Part shown: positions 2,727 through 60,066 of the stretch, one piece after another
Numbering within the stretch: the stretch's first letter is position 1
How the letters are laid out: every line of letters starts with the position of its first letter
NCBI GenBank assembly: GCA_964429815.1
Contig: CAYSCM010000001.1
Location: 320,001 to 384,000, forward strand
Direction of reading: 5' to 3'
Length of the DNA stretch: 64,000 bases
Source: an uncultured Candidatus Saccharibacteria bacterium
GTDB taxonomy: Bacteria > Patescibacteriota > Minisyncoccia > Phycocordibacterales > CAYSCM01
The notes under the pieces: generated by a model
Seen by the model: the letters and a program-made list of their open reading frames with translations, nothing else
Told to the model about the DNA's origin: nothing
Database searches by the model: none
Position numbers and translations under genes: made by a program

Positions 2727-2753
2727 CAGCTCTAAAAGTGCTAGCATAACGCT

Positions 2754-3041
2754 ATGTTCGGAACCGATGACGTTAAAAAGCTCGCCGCCCTCGCGCGCAT
2801 CGAGCTCGGGAAAGCCGAGACGGAAAAGCTCGCCAAGGAGCTTTCCTCCATAGTCTCTTTCGTCGACCAGGTGCAAAGGGCACCTACGGGCACTGAGGAA
2901 GACAAACCGTCGCTCCGCAACGTCATGCGTGACGACATCGATCCGTATCCGCGCGGAGCCTTTTCAGAGAAGCTCCTTTCCGCGGCCCCGAAGCGAGAGG
3001 GCAGGTATTTCAAGGTAAGGAAGATAATCACCCGCTCATGA
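2754..3041 (+). CDS. gatC: Asp/Glu-tRNA amidotransferase subunit C
   Basis: 95 aa; typical GatC N-terminus (VKKLAALARIEL...); overlaps gatA start by 4 nt. Confidence 0.85.
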   Translation: MFGTDDVKKLAALARIELGKAETEKLAKELSSIVSFVDQVQRAPTGTEEDKPSLRNVMRDDIDPYPRGAFSEKLLSAAPKREGRYFKVRKIITRS

Positions 3042-4453
3042 AAGAATTACAAGGGCTTTCGCTTACCAAAGTCCGCGAGCTTCTCCATGCACGGGAAATT
3101 TCCTCGGAAGAACTCACCCGACAGCTCCTCGAAGTAGTCGAAAAAAGGAACGGACAGGTAAACGCATACCTGGAAGTATTTGATGACGCACTTGCGCAGG
3201 CGAAGGCCGCCGATGCGAGAATCGCTTCGGGAGAGAGCGGCGCGGTACTTGGGGTCCCGCTTGCGATAAAAGACAACATCCTCATCGAAGGGCGTCGTGT
3301 CGGGGCGGCATCGAAGATCCTCGAAGGCTATGTCGCAAGCTACGACGCGAGCGCGATAGGGAAACTCAGAGCTTCCGGAGCGGTATTTGTGGGCCGCACC
3401 AATATGGACGAATTCGCGATGGGCGGCTCAACGGAAAATTCCGCCTATGGCGCGACCAAAAATCCCCACGACGAAACTCGCGTAGCCGGCGGCTCTTCCG
3501 GAGGGTCCGCTGCAGCCGTCGCCATGGGCGGGGCGTGCGCCGCGCTTGGCTCAGATACGGGCGGCTCGGTGCGGCAGCCGAGCTCGTTTTGCGGGGTCGT
3601 GGGGCTCAAGCCGACCTATGGCGCCATTTCCCGCTATGGGCTTATCGCCATGGGCTCCTCGCTCGACCAGATCGGTCCGATAGGAAAAAGCGTTTCTGAT
3701 GTCCAGGTCCTTTTCGATGTCATGCGTGGTCGCGACAGTCTTGACTCGACCAACACGCCACCGGAGCTTTATCCAAAAGGCGGAAAGCCGATGACCATTG
3801 GAATCCCGTACCATTTTTTGGGAGAAGGAATGGAAACCGATGCACGTGCGGTGTTCGATTCCGCGGTCAAAAAAATGGAGAATGCCGGCTATAGGATTAA
3901 AGACATCAAACTCCCGAGCGTCACCTATGCGCTCCCGGTCTACTATATAGTGATGCCGGCCGAGGCGTCGACGAACCTTGCGCGCTTTGATGGCGTACGC
4001 TACGGGCTCCGCCGGGACGGGAAGGATATGCTCGACGAATATCTCAAGACCCGCGGCTTTGGGTTCGGCCCGGAAGTTCGGCGTCGCATCATTCTCGGGA
4101 CTTATGTTCTGTCGGCCGGCTATTACGATGCATACTATCGAAAAGCTGATGCACTCCGGCGCGTCATCGCAAGGGAGTATCAAAACGCATTTGAGGATGT
4201 CGACCTCATTGTGACGCCAACGACCCCGGGACCTTCCTTTAAGGTTGGGGCGAAACAGGACCCACTTTCTCTCTACCTCGAAGATATTTTTACCGTCCCC
4301 GCAAACCTCACAGGGCTTCCCGCTATGTCAGTGCCTTCCGGAGTAGTCTCCCGGGACGGCCAGGACGTGCCGCTTGGCATTCAATTCACGGCACCGCAGG
4401 GAGGAGAAGGATCTTTGTTTGCGGCCGGGATAGATTTTGAACAGGTCCGCTGA
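3038..4453 (+). CDS. gatA: Glu-tRNA(Gln)/Asp-tRNA(Asn) amidotransferase subunit A (amidase)
   Basis: 471 aa; amidase signature GGSSGGSAAAVA and Ser-cisSer-Lys context. Confidence 0.95.
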   Translation: MKELQGLSLTKVRELLHAREISSEELTRQLLEVVEKRNGQVNAYLEVFDDALAQAKAADARIASGESGAVLGVPLAIKDNILIEGRRVGAASKILEGYVASYDASAIGKLRASGAVFVGRTNMDEFAMGGSTENSAYGATKNPHDETRVAGGSSGGSAAAVAMGGACAALGSDTGGSVRQPSSFCGVVGLKPTYGAISRYGLIAMGSSLDQIGPIGKSVSDVQVLFDVMRGRDSLDSTNTPPELYPKGGKPMTIGIPYHFLGEGMETDARAVFDSAVKKMENAGYRIKDIKLPSVTYALPVYYIVMPAEASTNLARFDGVRYGLRRDGKDMLDEYLKTRGFGFGPEVRRRIILGTYVLSAGYYDAYYRKADALRRVIAREYQNAFEDVDLIVTPTTPGPSFKVGAKQDPLSLYLEDIFTVPANLTGLPAMSVPSGVVSRDGQDVPLGIQFTAPQGGEGSLFAAGIDFEQVR

Positions 4454-4488: not shown

Positions 4489-5055
4489 ATGAATGAGATA
4501 ACGTTCCTCAATCTCGAGTATTTTTTTCTCCTGATTTACAACTTTTTTACGGGAGCGCATATCGTCGCCGCGCCCGAACACATTCGGGCCATTTGGAAGA
4601 CGTTTTCTTTTTTCTCCACGTTCATCAGCCTCCTTTTCCTTTCCGTCGCCATATATTCCTATGTGCGTCTGAGGGCCATCCGTCGGGATGAAGTGAAAAA
4701 GTATGGATACGTGCCCCTAGTCGAGTCTCCGCGGGAAAGGCACGACCCTCGTTGGCAACGGGTAGAGGCGCTCATGTCTTCGCTCAATGAGAACGACTGG
4801 CGCCAGGCCATCATCGAGGCGGATGTCATGCTCGACGATATGCTAAAAGGCATGGGCTACCCCGGCGATACGCTCGGGGAGCGGCTCAAGTCCATCGAAT
4901 CGAGCGATTTCGAAACCCTCAACGATGCATGGGAAGCGCACAAAATACGAAACGAGATAGCGCACGGCGGACTCGATTACCACCTCGACCGACGTCGCGC
5001 GCAGCACGCTGTCAACCTCTTCGGGAACGTGTTTCGTGCAAATTATTTGATATAG
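4489..5055 (+). CDS. hypothetical membrane-anchored protein
   Basis: 188 aa; N-terminal TM segments, no recognisable catalytic motif. Confidence 0.5.
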   Translation: MNEITFLNLEYFFLLIYNFFTGAHIVAAPEHIRAIWKTFSFFSTFISLLFLSVAIYSYVRLRAIRRDEVKKYGYVPLVESPRERHDPRWQRVEALMSSLNENDWRQAIIEADVMLDDMLKGMGYPGDTLGERLKSIESSDFETLNDAWEAHKIRNEIAHGGLDYHLDRRRAQHAVNLFGNVFRANYLI

Positions 5056-5113
5056 AAACCGGGGATTGGTCACACGTTTCGCTTCGCGAACTCGCGATCC
5101 CGCCCCACCGTCG

Positions 5114-5181
5114 CCTCACTCTCTCCGCAATCCAGAGAACAGAAAAGGACACGCAGAAGCGTGTCCTTTTCTGTTCTTGTT
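5114..5181. repeat. hairpin-containing direct repeat, copy 1 (about 68 nt)
   Basis: About 91% identical to 6285-6348; internal 19-20 bp stem gagaacagaaaaggacacgc/agaa/gcgtgtccttttctgttc. Confidence 0.75.
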
Positions 5182-5240
5182 ACACAGCTAGGACGATAGT
5201 GGCTCAAGATTTATAAGTTGGTTTTCCACACTTATGCTGC

Positions 5241-6116
5241 CTAGAAGTTTATATTTATGACGGTTCCGGCTACGTCTGAAATGTGGAAATAGGGTGGAGG
5301 TGATAAGGATTCAGAATTGAAAACGAAAGGATGTGAGGTTGTGGAAATACCGTCGCTTGCCTTGAAGGAGATCTGAAAAGTCGGGGTGTAGAATACTACA
5401 GTCGACATAAGATCACTTAATTTCGTTACCATCGGAACTAGATAATCATATATGCCGTCATGACCAACCGTTGCACTAATGGCTGTCATGTTTGGCGTCA
5501 ACGAAAAAGTAGAGGTTGCATTAGCAAAATGGTCATACGCGACGACCTGTATTGAACGGAAATCAATTGGAAAGGTAGTGTTCAAGGTAACCGAGCTGTT
5601 AGAAAGAACTGCGTAAATTACCTTTTTAGGAAGCACAGGAATTTGAGGACTTGCTACCGCTACTACAAGAGGCGGTGGGCCTTGTGGTGTAGGTGGTGGT
5701 GCCGGCTGGAACTCCTTTTTCTGCTGAGCAATTAACATATTCATCTTATTCTCTAAGTCCTGTATTGCGGCCGTTGTCGTGGGGGCGCTTTGACCGTCAG
5801 CACTTGTCGAAACCTGACTGATATGTTTCCGCGTAAGGGGACCGACATAACCCGACGCAGGAGAAATGCCCTCTTTAATTTGGAACGCGATTACAGCCCT
5901 CTTTGTCATAGGTCCGAAGAATGAAGTAATCGGTCCGGAATATACATTTTTTAATGTAAGAAATTGCTGAAGAGCAGCAACATCAGCACCTCTGATTCCT
6001 AGTGACAGGTTTCTATTGAAAGTAGCGTCAGCAAAAGCTACTAGAGGCAAAACTGCGAATACCAAAAGAAGTTTCTTCATTGAATACAATATGCAACAAC
6101 TGGCGCCGTTAAGCAA
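5241..6116 (-). CDS. secreted protein with peptidoglycan-binding (PG_binding_1-like) domain and Pro-rich linker
   Basis: 291 aa; signal peptide MKKLLLVFAVLPLVAFA; GIRGADVAALQQFLTLKN...TKRAVIAFQ motif; PAPPPTPQGPPP linker. Confidence 0.7.
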   Translation of the reverse strand: MLNGASCCILYSMKKLLLVFAVLPLVAFADATFNRNLSLGIRGADVAALQQFLTLKNVYSGPITSFFGPMTKRAVIAFQIKEGISPASGYVGPLTRKHISQVSTSADGQSAPTTTAAIQDLENKMNMLIAQQKKEFQPAPPPTPQGPPPLVVAVASPQIPVLPKKVIYAVLSNSSVTLNTTFPIDFRSIQVVAYDHFANATSTFSLTPNMTAISATVGHDGIYDYLVPMVTKLSDLMSTVVFYTPTFQISFKASDGISTTSHPFVFNSESLSPPPYFHISDVAGTVININF

Positions 6117-6284
6117 AATTACTCGAATCCGTCAAAGTGTGAGATTTTGTTCATTGCGGGGTAATTGGTCACGGATATTTCGCTCGTCGTCGCTCGCGAA
6201 ATTCCGCGACCCCGGCTCGGCATCGAAATCCGCTGATTTCGATATGCCTGCGCCTTGCAATTCCCGCCGCGAGGCAAGTAGTTG

Positions 6285-6348
6285 CCTCGCTCTCTCCACA
6301 AACCAGAGAACAGAAAAGACACGCAAAAGCGTGTCTTTTCTGTTCTTG
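6285..6348. repeat. hairpin-containing direct repeat, copy 2
   Basis: Same 68-nt unit as 5114-5181 with paired G/C single-base deletions on both stem arms; directly abuts 3' end of tRNA-Met. Confidence 0.75.
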
Positions 6349-6420
6349 TTGCGGGGGCGGGAATTGCACCCGCGACCTCAAGGTTATGAGCCTTGCGAGC
6401 TACTGCTGCTCCACCCCGCT
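6349..6420 (-). tRNA. tRNA-Met (anticodon CAU); initiator-like overall layout with A1:A72 mismatch
   Basis: Manual fold: AGCGGGG/UG/GAGC-AGCAGUA-GCUC/G/CAAGG-CUCAUAA-CCUUG/AGGUC/GCGGG-UGCAAUU-CCCGC/CCCCGCA-A; no encoded CCA. Confidence 0.8.
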
Positions 6421-6454
6421 ATGATGGGAGAAGTATAGCCAAAGGGGAGATTTA

Positions 6455-6493
6455 TGCAAATAAAAAAGTAACCCGCTGGTGTATGCGGGTTAC
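6455..6493 (-). terminator. intrinsic terminator for 6490..6822 gene
   Basis: gtaacccgc-tggtgtat-gcgggttac hairpin followed by T6 on minus strand. Confidence 0.65.
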
Positions 6494-6822
6494 GAGGCTT
6501 TGCCGTTGTATTTCTTTCGGCCGCGCTTAAATTCTTTGAGCACTTCGTCAGAGATGAGGAGAAATTCCTTCTGCCCACCATCGTCCACGTGCTTTTTGCG
6601 CCGAATCGGAATTTTCATCCAAAGGGTCCTTGAGCGGGTGTAGAGGTAGATCACCTCTACGGGTCCCTCGTCGGAAAAGACGCCGACATCCTTTCGAGGA
6701 TCCTCCGGTCCAAAACCTTTCTTATAAATGTGCTGCGGTTCCTTGGGATCGTCGTTTTTCTCGATGTAGGGCATCCCATGCGGGATGTCGCGAAAGTGCA
6801 TGAGTCCCAATTTCATGACCAA
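6490..6822 (-). CDS. hypothetical protein
   Basis: 110 aa ORF, basic C-terminus, followed by terminator. Confidence 0.45.
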   Translation of the reverse strand: MVMKLGLMHFRDIPHGMPYIEKNDDPKEPQHIYKKGFGPEDPRKDVGVFSDEGPVEVIYLYTRSRTLWMKIPIRRKKHVDDGGQKEFLLISDEVLKEFKRGRKKYNGKAS

Positions 6823-6979: not shown

Positions 6980-7303
6980 CTAAGAATCACCCTCAATCAT
7001 CTCGCCCACCAAAAAGTCGCAGCCATTAGGGCCGACGACTGCCGTGTGCTCCTTACTAGGTGGGACATCAAATCGGTCACCTTCTTTAAGGGTTACTTCT
7101 TCATCACCAAACTGAAACGTGAGTCCGCCGCCAAGTATGTACATGCTGACTTTGTCCTTGTGGACATGCGCCGGGTACTTCGTTCGTGCGTCATCATGCC
7201 ATTCATACACGTGAGGGAATCCTTCGTCAGCCAATTTGTGCTTCAATACCTCTTTATCCATAACTGAATTGTAACAAAAATGGACTATCTTTCGGATAGT
7301 CAT
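6980..7303 (-). CDS. cupin-domain protein
   Basis: 107 aa; cupin_2-like His cluster HVHKD...; beta-barrel pattern. Confidence 0.65.
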   Translation of the reverse strand: MTIRKIVHFCYNSVMDKEVLKHKLADEGFPHVYEWHDDARTKYPAHVHKDKVSMYILGGGLTFQFGDEEVTLKEGDRFDVPPSKEHTAVVGPNGCDFLVGEMIEGDS

Positions 7304-7515
7304 TTTTCAACCAATCTACGATTATTTGCGCGGTGGACGGTAGCGTGGACCTGGTCAGGCATTCCATAATCGCCGTCGCGATTATGGCCGCACGACCCTG
7401 CCTCGCGGTTTCGCGTGCTGGCGAAACATCGCTCCGGCCTTCAAGTCCCGATGCCGCTTCGCGGCTTCTAAAATCCAAAACCCGCCGGAATAAATCCCGA
7501 CGGGTTTTGACTTAG

Positions 7516-7590
7516 CGCGGCGGACGGGACTTGAACCCGCAACCTCCCGCGTGACAGGCGGGTGCTCTAACCAAGTTGAGCTACCACCGC
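7516..7590 (-). tRNA. tRNA-Asp (GUC)
   Basis: Manual fold: GCGGUGG...CCCGC-CUGUCAC-GCGGG...GCGGG-UUCAAGU-CCCGU-CCGCCGC-G. Confidence 0.9.
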
Positions 7591-16262: not shown

Positions 16263-16333
16263 TTGCGGGATCGTCTAATGGTAGGACACCAGGTTCTGGC
16301 CCTGGTAATCTAGGTTCGAGCCCTAGTCCCGCA
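16263..16333 (+). tRNA. tRNA-Gln (CUG)
   Basis: UGCGGGA...CCAGG-UUCUGGC-CCUGG...CUAGG-UUCGAGC-CCUAG-UCCCGCA-G; U1:A72 as in bacterial tRNA-Gln. Confidence 0.85.
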
Positions 16334-16447
16334 GCAGCAGTCAGCGCAGTATCGTGCGAGACCGGAGAGCCTCAGAACTCAAAGGTCCGCCGATTCGCTG
16401 AATGTACTATTCCGTTATTGCATATCCGGTGAGTCCGGTATTCAGAA

Positions 16448-16493: not shown

Positions 16494-17825
16494 CTAGAGA
16501 TATCTTTTTGCTTTTAATGTGATTCTGGTTTTAAGAGTTCCTAGCAGTTCACGCTTCTCAAGAACATCGCCTTCTGTCAGGACATGTCTCACATAATGCC
16601 GTGCATCGAAGTGTTCCTCGACACGCTGCGGTGATTGCTGCCCCAAGAACATTCTTTGGAATTTCTTAGCTCGGGCGCGTTCCTCCTCAAATTTCTTGCG
16701 AATTATCGGCTCATTGAGTTCTAATTTATCTATCTGCTCTATGAGTTGTCGGACAAGCTCCTCTTCGCGAATGTAACCGGCGGCTCTACAGGCGCGATCC
16801 TTTGAGCGATTGCATCCGTAGTACAGGTACGTGGCAGTCGTGCCCGTGCTTTTGATGAGTTTGTGCTTCTCCTCGGCGCAGACACCCGAGCCGCACGCTC
16901 CGCAGGTGATGAGTCGTGTGAAGGCGAACTCCTTGGACTCACCGCGCACAATTCTGTCGCGCTTGAGTTGTGCCAGCACCTTTTCATACAGTTCACGGGT
17001 GATTATCGGTTCGTGTTTGCCCGTGTACCATTTGCCGCTCCCGATTGGGTACTCAAACTGTCCGAAGTAGAACGGCGTCTGCAGGATTTTGTAAATGTTA
17101 CTCAAAGTCAGAGGCTTATTGCTCGTTGCGCTTCGGAAATTCATATCGAACTTGAGCCAGTGATAGAGCTTTTGCCCAGACCATTTCTCGTATGCGACCT
17201 TCTCGAACATCTGCCGAACGACTGGTGCACGGTCGGGGTCGACCATGACGTACCCCTTCCGGTCGACACGTTTCTCGTTGAGGTAGCCGGTCGGCGCAGG
17301 CGCAGGCCATAAGCCCATCTCACAGCGCATGCGGAGGCCTCGCTTCACATTCACACTTTTGTTGTCGTTCTCAAGCTTTGCCTGACTGCACAAAATCATG
17401 AGAAGAAATTTCTCACTCGGTGAATTTGTGAACTTCTGGCCGTATGTTCGGATCTCGACGAGAAGTTTTTGGTCCATCAAGTCCACCAGACTCCCGAGGT
17501 CGCCTGCGTTGCGGCTCAGGCGGTCTGGGTTCCAGGTGAGTACACCGTTGAACCGTCCGGAGCGGATGTCTTTGAGAATCTCATTGAACACAGGCCGCTG
17601 GCCGGAGTCCTTCGCAGAGTGTGCTTCACGCCGGATGTCCACGATCTCGATGCCATCACGCTCCGCGATCTCGAGCATTTCCTTCACCTGAGAGTCGATG
17701 GACAGTGCCTGTTTTTCGCTCGTGTCCTCAGTCGACTTTCGAGCGTAGAGTACATACTTAACTGGTACTGCTAATTGCGGCACGAAAGTGCCTGGAGCTC
17801 TAGCCCCTCGGGTTATGGTTTCCAT
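16494..17825 (-). CDS. large serine recombinase (resolvase/integrase family)
   Basis: 443 aa; N-terminal resolvase domain YARKSTEDTSEKQALSIDSQ (catalytic Ser), recombinase domain, zinc-ribbon CGACGSGVC...YYGC. Confidence 0.9.
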   Translation of the reverse strand: METITRGARAPGTFVPQLAVPVKYVLYARKSTEDTSEKQALSIDSQVKEMLEIAERDGIEIVDIRREAHSAKDSGQRPVFNEILKDIRSGRFNGVLTWNPDRLSRNAGDLGSLVDLMDQKLLVEIRTYGQKFTNSPSEKFLLMILCSQAKLENDNKSVNVKRGLRMRCEMGLWPAPAPTGYLNEKRVDRKGYVMVDPDRAPVVRQMFEKVAYEKWSGQKLYHWLKFDMNFRSATSNKPLTLSNIYKILQTPFYFGQFEYPIGSGKWYTGKHEPIITRELYEKVLAQLKRDRIVRGESKEFAFTRLITCGACGSGVCAEEKHKLIKSTGTTATYLYYGCNRSKDRACRAAGYIREEELVRQLIEQIDKLELNEPIIRKKFEEERARAKKFQRMFLGQQSPQRVEEHFDARHYVRHVLTEGDVLEKRELLGTLKTRITLKAKRYL

Positions 17826-53033: not shown

Positions 53034-54818
53034 TTAAATCGTAGGTGCTAAAAAGCTCCATACCTTATCCGTCGCCATGTACCAGCTCCGGACATCGGCG
53101 AAGCGCTCTGCGGGCGTTGTCACAAGGCCGAGCTCGATGCCCTTAAGCGACTTGGGCACGATGTAGATAAAGTCCGGCGAGTAAAGGAATATGGCCGGGG
53201 TTTCTCCCGAGACTATCGAAGCGAACTTGTCGTATGCATCCATGCGCGCGTTCGGCTGCGAAGAGCTTCGTGCGGTCTCGAGGAGTTTGTCGGCGTCTTT
53301 GTTGGTGTAGAGGGCGATATTAAGACCAGGGTCATTGCGCTGTGAGCTGTGCCAGAAAGCGAAGAGATCGAGCTCGCGCCCCACAATCTCGCCGAAAAGG
53401 AGCGCATCATAGTTGCGTGGACGTATCACGTTCTGGTTGAGGTCGCCCGTATCGAAAACCTTGAGCGTCACGTCCACACCGAGCGCTTCCCAGTCCTTTT
53501 TGAGGAGCTCCGCCGTCTGTTTGAGCTCCGGCGCAGAGGCGGTCGAGAGCGAAAAGGAAAGCTTCTCAAGGGTCTTTTTGTTCTTCTTTTTTTCATACAC
53601 TTTGTCGGTCTCGTTGTACGACCAGCCGTTGCGCTCAAGGATTGCTCGCGCGGAGGCGATGCGGGCTTCGGAGGACGTCGCGTCCCACGAGGAAGCGGGA
53701 AGGAGGTACGGCGGGAGCGGCGAGTCGATGACCTTGCCATAGCTTCCAAGCACGCTTTGCACGATCTGATCCTTGTCGATGGCGACGTCGAGAGCTTTGC
53801 GCACCTCGATGTGCGTGAATATCGACGCTTGATTCTGGTTGAAGAAGACCCCGAAGATGCGCGGCAGCGGGTATTTCAAAACGGTCTCACGGGAGGGAAT
53901 CGTCCCGAGTGTTTCCGGAGAAAGTCCCGCGGCCGCCTGCACGTCCCCGGAGGAAAGCGCGGAGGCGAGCTCGCCAACGCCGGAGTAGAAACGAACCGTG
54001 AGCTGTGCTATATGGGCGGTTCCGAGCGCCTCGTTTTCAAACGGCGCAAGCTCGTAGGAGGTCGGGATGCCCGAGGAGTTTTTTGAGATGGATGAGACAC
54101 GGTACGCCCCAGAGCCGATGGGGTTTACATTGTAATCGCTGAACGCGAATTGGTCGGCGGGGATGTTCTGCCAGATATGGGAGGGAAGTATCCCCATGGT
54201 CGTGTTCTCCAGAAACGGCGCGTAGGGGGCTTTTAGGTGGAAGGCCACCGTGCGCTCATCGATTTTTTCCACCGTGATGCCTTCCCAGTTGGCCCGCCGC
54301 GGGCTCTTTATCGTCGGGTCGAGCGCGCTGTTGACCGTGAAGACCACGTCATCGGAGGTCAAAGGCGTGCCGTCCTGGAAGACAAGGCCGGGTTTAAGGG
54401 TGAAAGTGTACGTCAGGCCGTCGGAGGAAATAGTATAGCCCTGCGCGAGGTCGGGAATGAGCGTGCCGGCAGGGGTCGGACGCAGAAGCCCCGCGTAGAC
54501 AAGCTCGGTCAGATCGCGGTCGGCGTCGGAGATAGCGAGTATGGGATTGATGAAACGAGCGGTACCTACGACCCCCTCGGTGAGGGAGCCTCCGCGGGCC
54601 GGTACCGAAACGAGAAGAGAGGCGTTTACTTCGTAGACGACAAAGAGTGCCGCGGCCGCGACGAAAAGCGAGAGCGCTCCGAAAAGGACACGCTCCGCCG
54701 GAGAAAGCCGCGATACCAAGGCGGAGAATCTCTGCATAAAGGATGGCCGTTTTGAGGCCGGGGGAGATGATTCTTCTTGAACGCCCGAATGAACGTTCGA
54801 TTGCTGCGGAAATTCCAT
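53034..54818 (-). CDS. ABC transporter substrate-binding protein, family 5 (oligopeptide/nickel-type)
   Basis: 594 aa; N-terminal TM anchor; SBP_bac_5 architecture. Confidence 0.8.
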   Translation of the reverse strand: MEFPQQSNVHSGVQEESSPPASKRPSFMQRFSALVSRLSPAERVLFGALSLFVAAAALFVVYEVNASLLVSVPARGGSLTEGVVGTARFINPILAISDADRDLTELVYAGLLRPTPAGTLIPDLAQGYTISSDGLTYTFTLKPGLVFQDGTPLTSDDVVFTVNSALDPTIKSPRRANWEGITVEKIDERTVAFHLKAPYAPFLENTTMGILPSHIWQNIPADQFAFSDYNVNPIGSGAYRVSSISKNSSGIPTSYELAPFENEALGTAHIAQLTVRFYSGVGELASALSSGDVQAAAGLSPETLGTIPSRETVLKYPLPRIFGVFFNQNQASIFTHIEVRKALDVAIDKDQIVQSVLGSYGKVIDSPLPPYLLPASSWDATSSEARIASARAILERNGWSYNETDKVYEKKKNKKTLEKLSFSLSTASAPELKQTAELLKKDWEALGVDVTLKVFDTGDLNQNVIRPRNYDALLFGEIVGRELDLFAFWHSSQRNDPGLNIALYTNKDADKLLETARSSSQPNARMDAYDKFASIVSGETPAIFLYSPDFIYIVPKSLKGIELGLVTTPAERFADVRSWYMATDKVWSFLAPTI

Positions 54819-59491: not shown

Positions 59492-59873
59492 TCTCGCACC
59501 CTACCGTCTCAGAAGCGACTGAAGGGAAGTAATGAAAACCGGGATGCTTAAAATTCCCGTCAGGTATTCTACTGATGTGTAGGCCTCTCCCGTTTTAAAG
59601 ATGTCATGGAAAAGGAGAAAATCAACGAACAAAAAGCCGACTATTAAAACAATGTCGAGTAGTTTTCTCATGCTCACATAACTAGTATACAAAGACTGGG
59701 TTTCTTAGCGGTCGGCGTAATTGTGTGTTACAACTCTTGGGTATTTAGGAGGCGTCGCATGGTGCTTTGAACCGTAGGTTTAAAGAGCTGGAGGCGCGAC
59801 GGCGGCGAGGCGGGGTCGCGGAAATTTTCAGTAGAAAATTATCCGTGACCTAGTGCACATTTGTTTGCAGGGC

Positions 59874-59958
59874 GGAGGGTTCGCATAGCGGTCTAGTGCG
59901 CACGCTTGGAAAGCGTGTGAACCGAAAGGTTCCGAGGGTTCGAATCCCTCACCCTCCG
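59874..59958 (+). tRNA. tRNA-Ser (GGA), class II with long variable arm
   Basis: GGAGGGU/UC/GCA-UAGCGGUCUAG-UGC/G/CACGC-UUGGAAA-GCGUG/UGAACC-GAAA-GGUUCC/GAGGG-UUCGAAU-CCCUC/ACCCUCC-G; same layout as E. coli tRNA-Ser(GGA). Confidence 0.85.
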
Positions 59959-60066
59959 CCCTGTATGCAAGGCTCGAGTGAATTTTCATCTCTCCGCCTC
60001 CGCCCAATCTTTACATACATGCATATCGGGTTACGGGTTCTTTAAAAATTGTAAAGAAAAGGGCAC

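Follow-up and report, generated by a model that had tools for sequence, protein, structure and literature searches.

Cis-mobilizable elements (CIMEs) are degraded or non-autonomous derivatives that stack by accretion, and the attP(+) site of the CTX phage is formed by two inverted dif-like sites. Both attP(+) and the attC sites of integrons are reportedly folded single-strand recombination sites, a view credited to Val et al. 2005, Bouvier et al. 2005 and MacDonald et al. 2006, and Williams 2002 (Nucleic Acids Res 30:866) is said to have named the T-loop of transfer RNA (tRNA) genes as one classical crossover sublocation of tRNA-targeting integrases. Here we compare with these systems a locus in a 64,000-nt stretch of DNA from an uncultured Candidatus Saccharibacteria bacterium (the window; positions 320,001 to 384,000 of contig CAYSCM010000001.1, assembly GCA_964429815.1), in which two similar hairpin repeats lie on either side of a gene for a peptidoglycan (PG)-binding protein, one of them directly beside a tRNA-fMet gene. 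Our results suggest that the repeats are probably the tails of two tandem copies of a ~200-nt non-coding element that occupies tRNA 3' flanks in this Patescibacteria clade, and that this element is a non-autonomous tRNA-site insertion element.

The two repeat copies (5110..5181 and 6281..6350, neither assigned to a strand) are real and 91% identical. They align in register as three direct-repeat blocks, 5110-5147/6281-6318 (89%), 5144-5169/6314-6339 (88%) and 5166-5181/6335-6350 (100%), which blastn joins into one match of 5113-5181 with 6284-6350 (91.3% over 69 columns, two single-base gaps, E 7e-16 against the window); a 23-mer of the repeat had no match in 100 shuffles. Each copy holds a perfect (100%) inverted repeat around a 4-nt loop, 19 nt long in copy 1 (5136-5154/5159-5177) and 18 nt long in copy 2 (6307-6324/6329-6346). 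The gap in the 5' arm is one G missing from copy 2 (AAAAGGACACGC versus AAAAGACACGC) and the gap in the 3' arm is the matching C (GCGTGTCCTTTT versus GCGTGTCTTTT); the compensated indel described in the original prediction, made from this DNA alone, is thus borne out together with the repeats themselves. Both copies consist of the 3' arm of a further hairpin, hp1, a spacer (CTCTCTCCACAAACC in copy 2), a terminator-shaped hairpin (copy 1, 5136-5177, 19 bp, loop AGAA; copy 2, 6307-6346, 18 bp, loop AAAA) and the motif CTTGTT, which in copy 2 lies at the tRNA end. Copy 2 adjoins the 3' end of the tRNA-Met gene as predicted, with an overlap of 2 nt rather than a start on the next nucleotide, and on the minus strand its hairpin is the first feature past the tRNA. 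Copy 1 stands between two convergent genes, 63 nt beyond the stop (5241) of the PG_binding_1 gene on the minus strand and 81 nt beyond the stop (5055) of gene 4489-5055 on the plus strand. A fuzzy search with up to 3 mismatches and blastn-short found no hairpin copy beyond these two in the 64-kb window; a 14-mer match at 54681 lies inside a coding sequence and was discarded as chance. A gapped, weaker similarity runs on upstream of both copies (5045-5110 versus 6145-6280), and the true repeat unit is ~120 nt long in copy 1 versus ~200 nt in copy 2.

The repeats are thus the tail modules of a larger non-coding unit of ~200 nt with a core of ~150 nt, which encodes no protein (the units contain no open reading frame (ORF)). 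In the direction of the tRNA, the unit reads X, terminator-shaped hairpin, acceptor-like strand, hp1, X'c, hairpin B, hairpin A and second X. For tRNA-fMet, X is CAATTCCCGCCCCCGCAA, the tRNA's own sequence from the T-loop to the 3' end. The acceptor-like strand, UGCGGGG, is short and complementary to the acceptor 3' strand, and X'c (CGGGAAUUGCA) is the reverse complement of the tRNA T-loop plus the 3' strand of the T-stem. Hairpin B is nested in a short GGC/GCC stem, and the loop of hairpin A is GCGACGGC.

Copy 2 (6154-6350, minus strand) is a full member of the family behind tRNA-fMet. Its intact core (6154..6302, minus strand) matches R1, a covariance model of the element, with 132.8 bits (E 4e-32), a match by construction, as it is one of the 15 training sequences of R1. 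In plus-strand coordinates it comprises an X remnant, X_L2 (6156-6167, GCGGGGTAATTG), hairpin A (6167-6211), hairpin B (6219-6248), X' (6256-6268, TGCAATTCCCGCC; a perfect 13-nt inverted copy of tRNA positions 6356-6368) and hp1 (6269-6290). The segment 6140-6352 folds far better than its shuffles on each strand (z -8.2 and -8.7). Copy 1 (5059-5181) is the same unit with ~70 nt deleted, namely hairpin B, X' and the 5' arm of hp1. Its decayed core (5059..5135, minus strand), recognized by gapped local alignment to copy 2 and by reading, retains a shortened hairpin A followed by the 3' arm of hp1 and scores below the detection threshold of R1; its X remnant, X_L1 (5059-5069, CCGGGGATTGG), begins 3 nt past the stop of the gene 4489-5055.

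The window holds a second member of the family at 7347-7448 (minus strand; R1 62.3 bits, E 8.5e-14, model positions 39-143), on the 3' side of tRNA-Asp (7515-7590, minus strand). A terminator-shaped hairpin (~7477-7508) precedes hp1 (GCCGCGAAGCGGC), followed by hairpin B and by hairpin A with the same loop. The X'c of this member (CGGGACTTGAA) is the complement of the T-loop and T-stem of tRNA-Asp (TTCAAGTCCCG), and a degenerate copy of the tRNA-Asp 3' end lies at ~7323-7348. Directly after this element, at 7303, a cupin gene starts. Elsewhere in the window, 59786-59850 (plus strand) gives a weak partial scaffold match (15.7 bits, E 0.11) with a hairpin-A-like GGGGTCGCGGAAATTTTC...GAAAATTATCCGTGACC; it sits just upstream, not downstream, of tRNA-Ser (59873-59961) and may be a stranded fragment.

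The boundaries of the unit point to an insertion. At genes for tRNA-fMet, Met, Asp and Thr, a direct copy of the final 16-17 nt recurs 110-250 nt downstream. Such second tRNA-end copies, with 0-2 mismatches, are present at the related loci L004, L009, L010, L012, L013, L018, L021, L025, L026, L028, L030, L042 and L043. In the window the tRNA's own copy is X_R (6350-6366, TGCGGGGGCGGGAATTG on the plus strand), the segment duplicated in relatives, and the two distal copies, X_L2 and X_L1, are degenerate. A direct repeat of the tRNA 3' end therefore flanks an insert beside an intact tRNA, and relatives offer empty sites with the same flanks. The empty locus L027 and the filled locus L028 have a common distal flank up to ...CGTGTTGCGGGGGCGGGAATT (GGGAATT) and then diverge: L027 runs straight into the tRNA, and L028 has 157 nt of element before it. 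A conserved 188-aa membrane protein gene, geneA (4489..5055, plus strand), is convergent with tRNA-fMet across the clade and marks the ancestral junction. This geneA/tRNA junction is empty in L008, L019, L020, L033 and L034, where ~15-20 nt separate the stop of the geneA homolog from the end of the tRNA; L043 and the window have it filled. Compared at the level of sequence, the unit thus shows itself as an insertion in the tRNA T-loop that regenerates the tRNA 3' end. The direct repeat begins within the T-loop, at one of the classical crossover sites of integrases that target tRNA genes.

These features are shared with tRNA-site att duplications and CIMEs, in which a direct repeat from T-loop to 3' end likewise lies on both sides of the insert and the incoming copy restores the tRNA, empty and filled sites occur, older decayed copies lie distally in tandem stacks, and relatives carry integrase-bearing islands at the same tRNA (here L024 and L012). 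The units of the window family differ from them in being only ~150-200 nt long and geneless, with the same boundaries in ~30 members; they also have three hairpins that covary, and their att core recurs in inverted form, matched anew to each tRNA target.

To follow the family, species-representative genomes were scanned with the 25-nt 3' half of the tRNA as the pattern, which returned 32 species, identical there by construction. A homologous element stands at tRNA-fMet in ~12-14 of these 32 species, as judged from the 330 nt downstream of each tRNA, and 6 more came from metagenomes scanned for the tRNA together with TGCAATTC. Model R1, built from 15 tRNA-fMet element sequences and used with a cut-off of E < 1e-5, made 30 matches in 350 kb of DNA (the window and related loci), half of them its own training sequences and 15 new; the more distant relatives L051, L053, L055 and L057 gave none in 83 kb with 9 tRNAs. 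Wherever a tRNA could be called, the R1 match follows it on the same strand at a distance of 1-67 nt, with a tandem second unit of L029 at 188 nt; matches without a called tRNA are beside intron-split tRNA-fMet genes or contig ends. The original prediction would have been refuted by a lack of further copies and of conservation in relatives. Such copies and such conservation exist, together with the tRNA-Asp copy in the window, and the predicted structured family is real; the family is that of the adjoining ~150-nt core within the larger unit, however, and not of the 68-nt hairpin.

The targets include tRNA-fMet, elongator tRNA-Met and tRNA-Asp, and the tRNA-Thr of L018 has the same end duplication. 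Presence is patchy, with an element at 9 of 23 tRNA-Asp genes and 14 of 58 tRNA genes with a CAT anticodon, and presence at fMet and at Asp is uncoupled between genomes. Across the tRNA targets, the hairpin A/B scaffold and the conserved single-stranded motifs are homologous, and X and X'c vary so as to match the local tRNA. X'c is CGGGAATTGCA at fMet, GGGACTTGAA or GGGACTCGAA at Asp according to the gene's own T-loop, and GGGAGACTCGAA at Met; the matching extends to the A/G difference between TTCAAGTCCC and TTCGAGTCCC tRNA-Asp genes. It also covers 2-5 T-loop bases outside the direct repeat, and X'c is therefore a reverse complement of the tRNA rather than a by-product of the duplication or a tRNA paralog. 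The core as a diverged tRNA paralog was accordingly ruled out, since X'c does not copy the 5' side of the T-arm but is reverse-complementary to the T-loop.

The contig of the closest relative, P0002, stops 16 nt past geneA. Among relatives with a long contig, L004/L005 is the closest, with a geneA homolog of 68% identity and with the same tRNA convergent with geneA. Past this tRNA comes a different hairpin and then a stretch homologous to window positions 6154-6302, in which the hairpins are kept and their sequences changed. At 10571-10700 of L004, CTTGTT and GTGGGTGAG come after the terminator of the geneA homolog; by eye this looks like an older, near-erased unit distal to the intact element.

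In the direction of the tRNA, the order in the window is tRNA-fMet, X_R, terminator 2, core 2, X_L2, PG segment, terminator 1, core 1, X_L1 and geneA stop. There are thus two tandem units, an intact one by the tRNA and a decayed one distal to it; such a layout would be expected if one element after another had inserted at the tRNA, or if X repeats had recombined unequally. L029, L011 and L009 likewise have second units, either tandem or fragmentary. The PG_binding_1 gene (5241..6080, minus strand; gene call of 840 nt, 279 aa, PF01471 E 1e-12) has a signal-peptide-like N-terminus (MKKLLLVFAVLPLVAFA), lies on the same strand as the tRNA and has a GC content of 0.41-0.49, below the 0.52-0.58 of its flanks. 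Its protein is an orphan without close homologs, the best non-self match having 45% identity over 43% of the query. The inserted segment around it (~5182-6153, 972 nt) runs from terminator 1 and its CTTGTT to X_L2, at the position of the former tRNA 3' end. A similar arrangement is found in L012 (290-1500), where tRNA-Asp, terminator, core, tRNA-end copy, a gene for a 203-aa protein (629-1240), a divergent core and a second tRNA-end copy (1441-1460) follow one another. That gene, RibD_C-like by eye, is a single gene between two element copies, like the window PG gene.

We infer the following order of events in the window. A site-specific recombinase supplied in trans, with the tRNA T-loop as its site of action, would move the element, which is plausible; the two window copies would stem from re-insertion, or from unequal recombination between flanking X repeats; and the distal copy would then decay via the 70-nt deletion. 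The PG gene, probably acquired horizontally, would lie at the junction of the copies, where the tRNA 3' end formerly stood.

The units have no integrase of their own: they contain no ORF, and neither the L024 integrase nor the L012 serine recombinase, used as tblastn queries, had a match beside any member. The element is therefore at most a non-autonomous derivative. Classical integrative elements occur at the same tRNA-fMet in relatives. L024 carries there (2745-4234) a tyrosine integrase, an Xis-like helix-turn-helix (HTH) protein and a 534-aa protein of unassigned function that is possibly replication-related, and L012 (1822-3363) carries the reading frame of a large serine recombinase, which has its end within the tRNA gene. 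The L024 contig with the integrase/Xis island holds no core. In the search for an autonomous version, a tRNA-end direct repeat more than 450 nt away was seen only in L012, where it brackets the RibD_C-like gene and not a recombinase. In the window itself, the minus-strand ORF 16788-17762 has 28% identity over ~320 residues to the L012 serine recombinase (tblastn); it lies near tRNA-Gln (16264-16335, plus strand) and may be another integrative element at a tRNA gene.

The core has a conserved fold. In alignment A4 (MAFFT, 15 tRNA-fMet elements, with the structure taken from one member), 79.6% of cells are paired versus 32-48% when the partners are slid by 1-3 columns, double-sided changes occur in 40 of the 58 pairs, and the covariation score is 0.304 versus 0.05-0.10. 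Alignment A5, which is fitted to the model and leans towards the structure, has 88% paired versus 31-44%, with double changes in 56 of 58 pairs. The three inner hairpins of the larger unit covary, and the junction and loop motifs GGCGCAGCGAUG, CCGCGAGCC, GGGGUCG and the hairpin A loop are conserved. In 26 of 30 members the minimum free energy is lower for the tRNA-sense strand, and the two strands differ by 7 kcal/mol on average (Wilcoxon p 3e-5). These predictions suggest that the tRNA-sense strand is the one that folds, whether in RNA or in single-stranded DNA. A kink-turn at the base of hairpin B was considered and dropped, as tandem G.A pairs are lacking by eye.

One possible explanation, which we consider a lesser but real possibility, is that the core encodes a tRNA-like non-coding RNA, transcribed by read-through from the tRNA promoter. 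Pairing of the acceptor-like 5' strand with the downstream X would create an acceptor/T-stem minihelix with the same sequence as in the tRNA next to it; an RNA of ~150 nt would be freed by RNase P, trimming of the 3' end and addition of CCA, and the hairpin would be a leaky terminator or a processing hairpin. This explanation concerns the function of the core and is compatible with its arrival by insertion. The strong covariation of three hairpins with conserved junction and loop sequences speaks for it, as do the strict co-orientation with the tRNA, the better folding of the tRNA-sense strand and the lack of a hairpin between tRNA and core in L025, L013, L018-Met and L004-Met. A G.U pair stands at the base of hairpin A in 19 of the 33 A5 rows with letters there, and in a hand-made alignment G.U is only modestly above A.C (42 versus 32); folded single-stranded DNA also tolerates G.T pairs, however, and the strand bias is therefore no specific sign of RNA. 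In most members a terminator-shaped hairpin precedes the core, and the 5-15 nt ahead of the core contain no promoter-like sequence. The acceptor-like pairing has decayed in the window, L004, L011 and L039 though the inner stem is kept, and the patchy presence described above, with none in the four more distant relatives, is unlike that of a housekeeping RNA.

The comparison with known tRNA-like RNAs (the tmRNA domain, YrlA Y RNA and phage P4 CI RNA) is likewise divided. They share with the element a predicted acceptor-like stem continuous with a T-stem-like helix, and the 3' strand of the element is identical to that of a real tRNA, so that it could be a substrate of RNase P or of the CCA-adding enzyme. 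The element differs in having no mimic of the T-loop or the D-loop (the T-loop is closed into a helix), in the terminator that usually stands upstream of its core, in its patchy presence and in the lack of an Rfam match. Rfam 15, searched at the gathering threshold and with E up to 10 over the window and 8 related loci, holds no family for the element, and only tRNAs and a group I intron in L035 reached the threshold; the best scores on the hairpin itself were generic (STnc320, 27.5 bits versus a gathering score of 50). Scans of IMG/VR yielded nothing related, with two chance matches to the X'-hp1 pattern and none to the tRNA 3' half.

As for what the core does in an insertion element, it is tempting to speculate that it is a target-matched folded recombination module, in which X'c:X pairing on one strand recreates the duplex of the tRNA from T-loop to 3' end. 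We put this forward tentatively, by analogy, and regard it as rather unlikely. A trans-acting recombinase would insert the unit, sometimes with a single co-oriented gene, into the matching tRNA; a new target would be chosen by altering X and X'c on an unchanged hairpin A/B scaffold; and the window PG gene would be a captured cassette. In a variant of this idea, the fold would be an RNA guide for the recombinase. A target-matched X'c would be expected if a folded single strand must recreate the target duplex, and would equally fit an RNA that pairs with the tRNA end.

The likeness to integron attC and CTX attP(+) is an analogy and not a membership. As in those sites, structure is conserved while sequence varies, one strand is predicted to fold better, and folding of the inverted pair X/X'c would yield the chromosomal target once more as a duplex; consecutive sites also have single co-oriented genes between them (the window PG gene and the L012 gene), with the newest unit beside the anchor. 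The anchor of the window family is a tRNA gene, however, an extra two-hairpin scaffold lies outside the X:X'c stem, and most units are geneless. No intI gene with an adjacent attI and Pc was seen near the array among the ORFs or by tblastn with one tyrosine integrase, no IntI profile search having been run over the window. R/L boxes (GTTRRRY) were not apparent by eye, the pairing strands being tRNA 3'-end copies, and no consensus scan was made.

Several points weigh against the tRNA-site insertion element. No recombinase was found in ~30 members, and no autonomous relative with the same core was found. Mobility is therefore deduced from site polymorphism only, which duplication and loss could mimic. 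Ordinary double-stranded att sites need neither an inverted core copy (X'c) nor covarying hairpins, so that a plain integrase model does not cover everything. Between the window copies, the 72-nt tails share 91% identity and the heads only ~65-70%, a difference that a single duplication does not explain and for which gene conversion or selection on the terminator are possibilities. Three other assemblies of the organism show the same layout of PG gene and copy 2 and break in the tRNA. The members are phylogenetically related, so that shuffle statistics overstate their independence and the covariation figures are counts, not probabilities; the slid controls keep the relatedness and are the fairer comparison. 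Finally, the minus-strand tail of copy 1 (CTGGATTGCGG) is T-poor and was not flagged by a consensus scan, and termination by the hairpin is suggested by the form and place of its stem.

Alternatively, the PG gene may have arrived in a miniature insertion, one of the readings of the original prediction, with the repeats as its two ends or as its target duplication. A low-GC orphan gene bracketed by 91%-identical direct repeats, the single gene of L012 bracketed likewise by element copies, and the absence of the PG gene from L004, the closest relative available, would all fit. This version is now quite unlikely and largely refuted: ~18 further species or assemblies have copy 2 and its hairpin at tRNA-fMet but no PG gene, the repeats run on, beside geneA, into a second core that has decayed, and the borders of the PG segment (5182 and ~6153) lie outside the repeats, at CTTGTT and X_L2. 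A third, decayed terminator copy at 6126-6150, which would mark a target duplication, was also considered and rejected, its local alignment being no better than those of shuffles (p ~0.33). What survives of the proposal is the link to an insertion beside the tRNA. The hairpins are not the two ends of an insertion; they represent equivalent internal modules of two tandem element copies, and the PG segment sits at the junction between those copies.

It is similarly improbable that the window shows a local segmental duplication of the region downstream of the tRNA, with plain terminators, and that the family is a vertically inherited trailer lost many times. Direct X repeats permit unequal crossing-over and precise deletion, which would give filled and empty sites with no recombinase, in keeping with the failure to find one in any member. 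Vertical descent of one trailer cannot, however, place the same hairpin A/B scaffold behind four tRNA species with X and X'c matched to each, and the uncoupled presence of the fMet and Asp elements also argues against it. A miniature inverted-repeat transposable element (MITE) was rejected as well: all members lie at tRNA 3' flanks in one orientation, the duplication comprises at least 17-20 nt of the tRNA, and the inverted pair X'c/X includes the duplicated target itself. Dispersed extragenic palindromes of the REP/BIME kind, which the original prediction had also raised, are very improbable, since the perfect palindrome found twice in intergenic DNA has just these two copies in 64 kb and a different sequence in every related genome examined.

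The other part of that suggestion, that the hairpins are terminators, agrees with their shape and position. A GC-rich stem (GGACACGC/GCGTGTCC in copy 1) stands between a 5' A-rich run and a 3' T-rich run, so that both strands read a stem plus a T-rich tail; both copies have GGACACGC-loop-GCGTGTCC followed by TTTTCTGTTCTTGTT on the plus strand and TTTTCTGTTCTCTGG on the minus strand. An A-tract, GC stem and T-tract on either strand is the form of a bidirectional Rho-independent terminator. The hairpins are GC stem-loops with a T-rich tract downstream of a transcription unit, and in the consensus scan copy 2, 0 nt past tRNA-fMet, is marked as a terminator-like feature of the minus strand. Judged by these features, the hairpin is likely a Rho-independent terminator working in both directions; copy 2 would stop transcription of tRNA-fMet, and copy 1 would stop that of the convergent genes 4489-5055 and 5241-6080. 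Like bidirectional intrinsic terminators, the hairpins lie straight after a tRNA gene or between convergent genes. They differ in being part of a repeated unit and in their unusually long and perfect stem (18-19 bp), long because the A- and T-tracts pair.

An analogous A-tract/GC-stem/T-tract hairpin lies between tRNA and core in ~17 of 24 family members whose spacers were read by eye, with a sequence that differs per species; a crude automatic T-rich flag marked only 9 of the same 24 spacers. At the same tRNA, ~20 relatives have a hairpin of like architecture and unrelated sequence. One arm of a perfect palindrome can template the correction of the other in a single step (quasi-palindrome templated mutation). 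Either termination function or such arm-templated correction would keep the stem perfect and give the paired indel, which fits both selection for a stable terminator and templated correction. The indel alone is therefore no proof of selection, for which it had earlier been taken as an argument. The hairpins themselves are ordinary, probably terminators duplicated along with their surroundings.

The tRNA gene beside copy 2 is an initiator-type tRNA-Met (CAT; 6348..6420, minus strand, ARAGORN; Rfam tRNA 6349-6420, 58.5 bits) with no encoded CCA, which we take to resemble E. coli tRNAfMet. Its T-loop is odd, with UGCAAUU rather than the usual T-Psi-C pattern, and its D-loop has no GG pair. A promoter-like TTTGCA-17-TATACT (6432..6460, minus strand; a pattern match from the consensus scan) lies just upstream, and the same scan finds a terminator-like hairpin of the upstream gene 6490-6822 (minus strand) at 6468-6493. 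With this motif, the upstream gene's own terminator and the hairpin, the tRNA therefore looks like a one-gene unit closed by the hairpin. Assemblies L001-L003, which are independent short-read assemblies of the same organism, all end inside the tRNA-fMet gene (window ~6401-6404). The organism also occurs in the sequencing runs SRR12313479, SRR12313480 and SRR12313482. In other relatives, an intron splits tRNA-fMet after the anticodon (L007 5420-5830 and L035 2669-2932, also L036, L040, L041 and L046), and the L035 intron is a group I intron by Rfam (69.8 bits). This agrees with the group I introns published for Patescibacteria tRNA genes (PMC13011429).

Together, the element is structured, linked to tRNA genes, bounded by duplicated tRNA ends and provided with an internal reverse complement of its target, and it is absent from Rfam and from the literature searched. 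It is described nowhere in the portion of the full-text literature covered by the search, including the Patescibacteria tRNA-intron paper, in which terms were looked up; such absence does not prove novelty.

The genomes of Patescibacteria measure ~0.5-1 Mb, and a retained non-coding structure is notable in genomes so small. The element accounts for assembly breaks at these tRNAs, and model R1 with alignments A4 and A5 provides a concrete, testable model for annotating candidate-phyla genomes. If the core is an RNA, it would represent a new tRNA-linked RNA class. If the fold is instead a recombination substrate or guide, it would be a new nucleic-acid-specified targeting of tRNA genes and, if true, a route for picking up single genes such as that of a secreted PG-binding protein; with a target-matched folded module, the tRNA genes of Patescibacteria would be the anchors of small cassette stacks.

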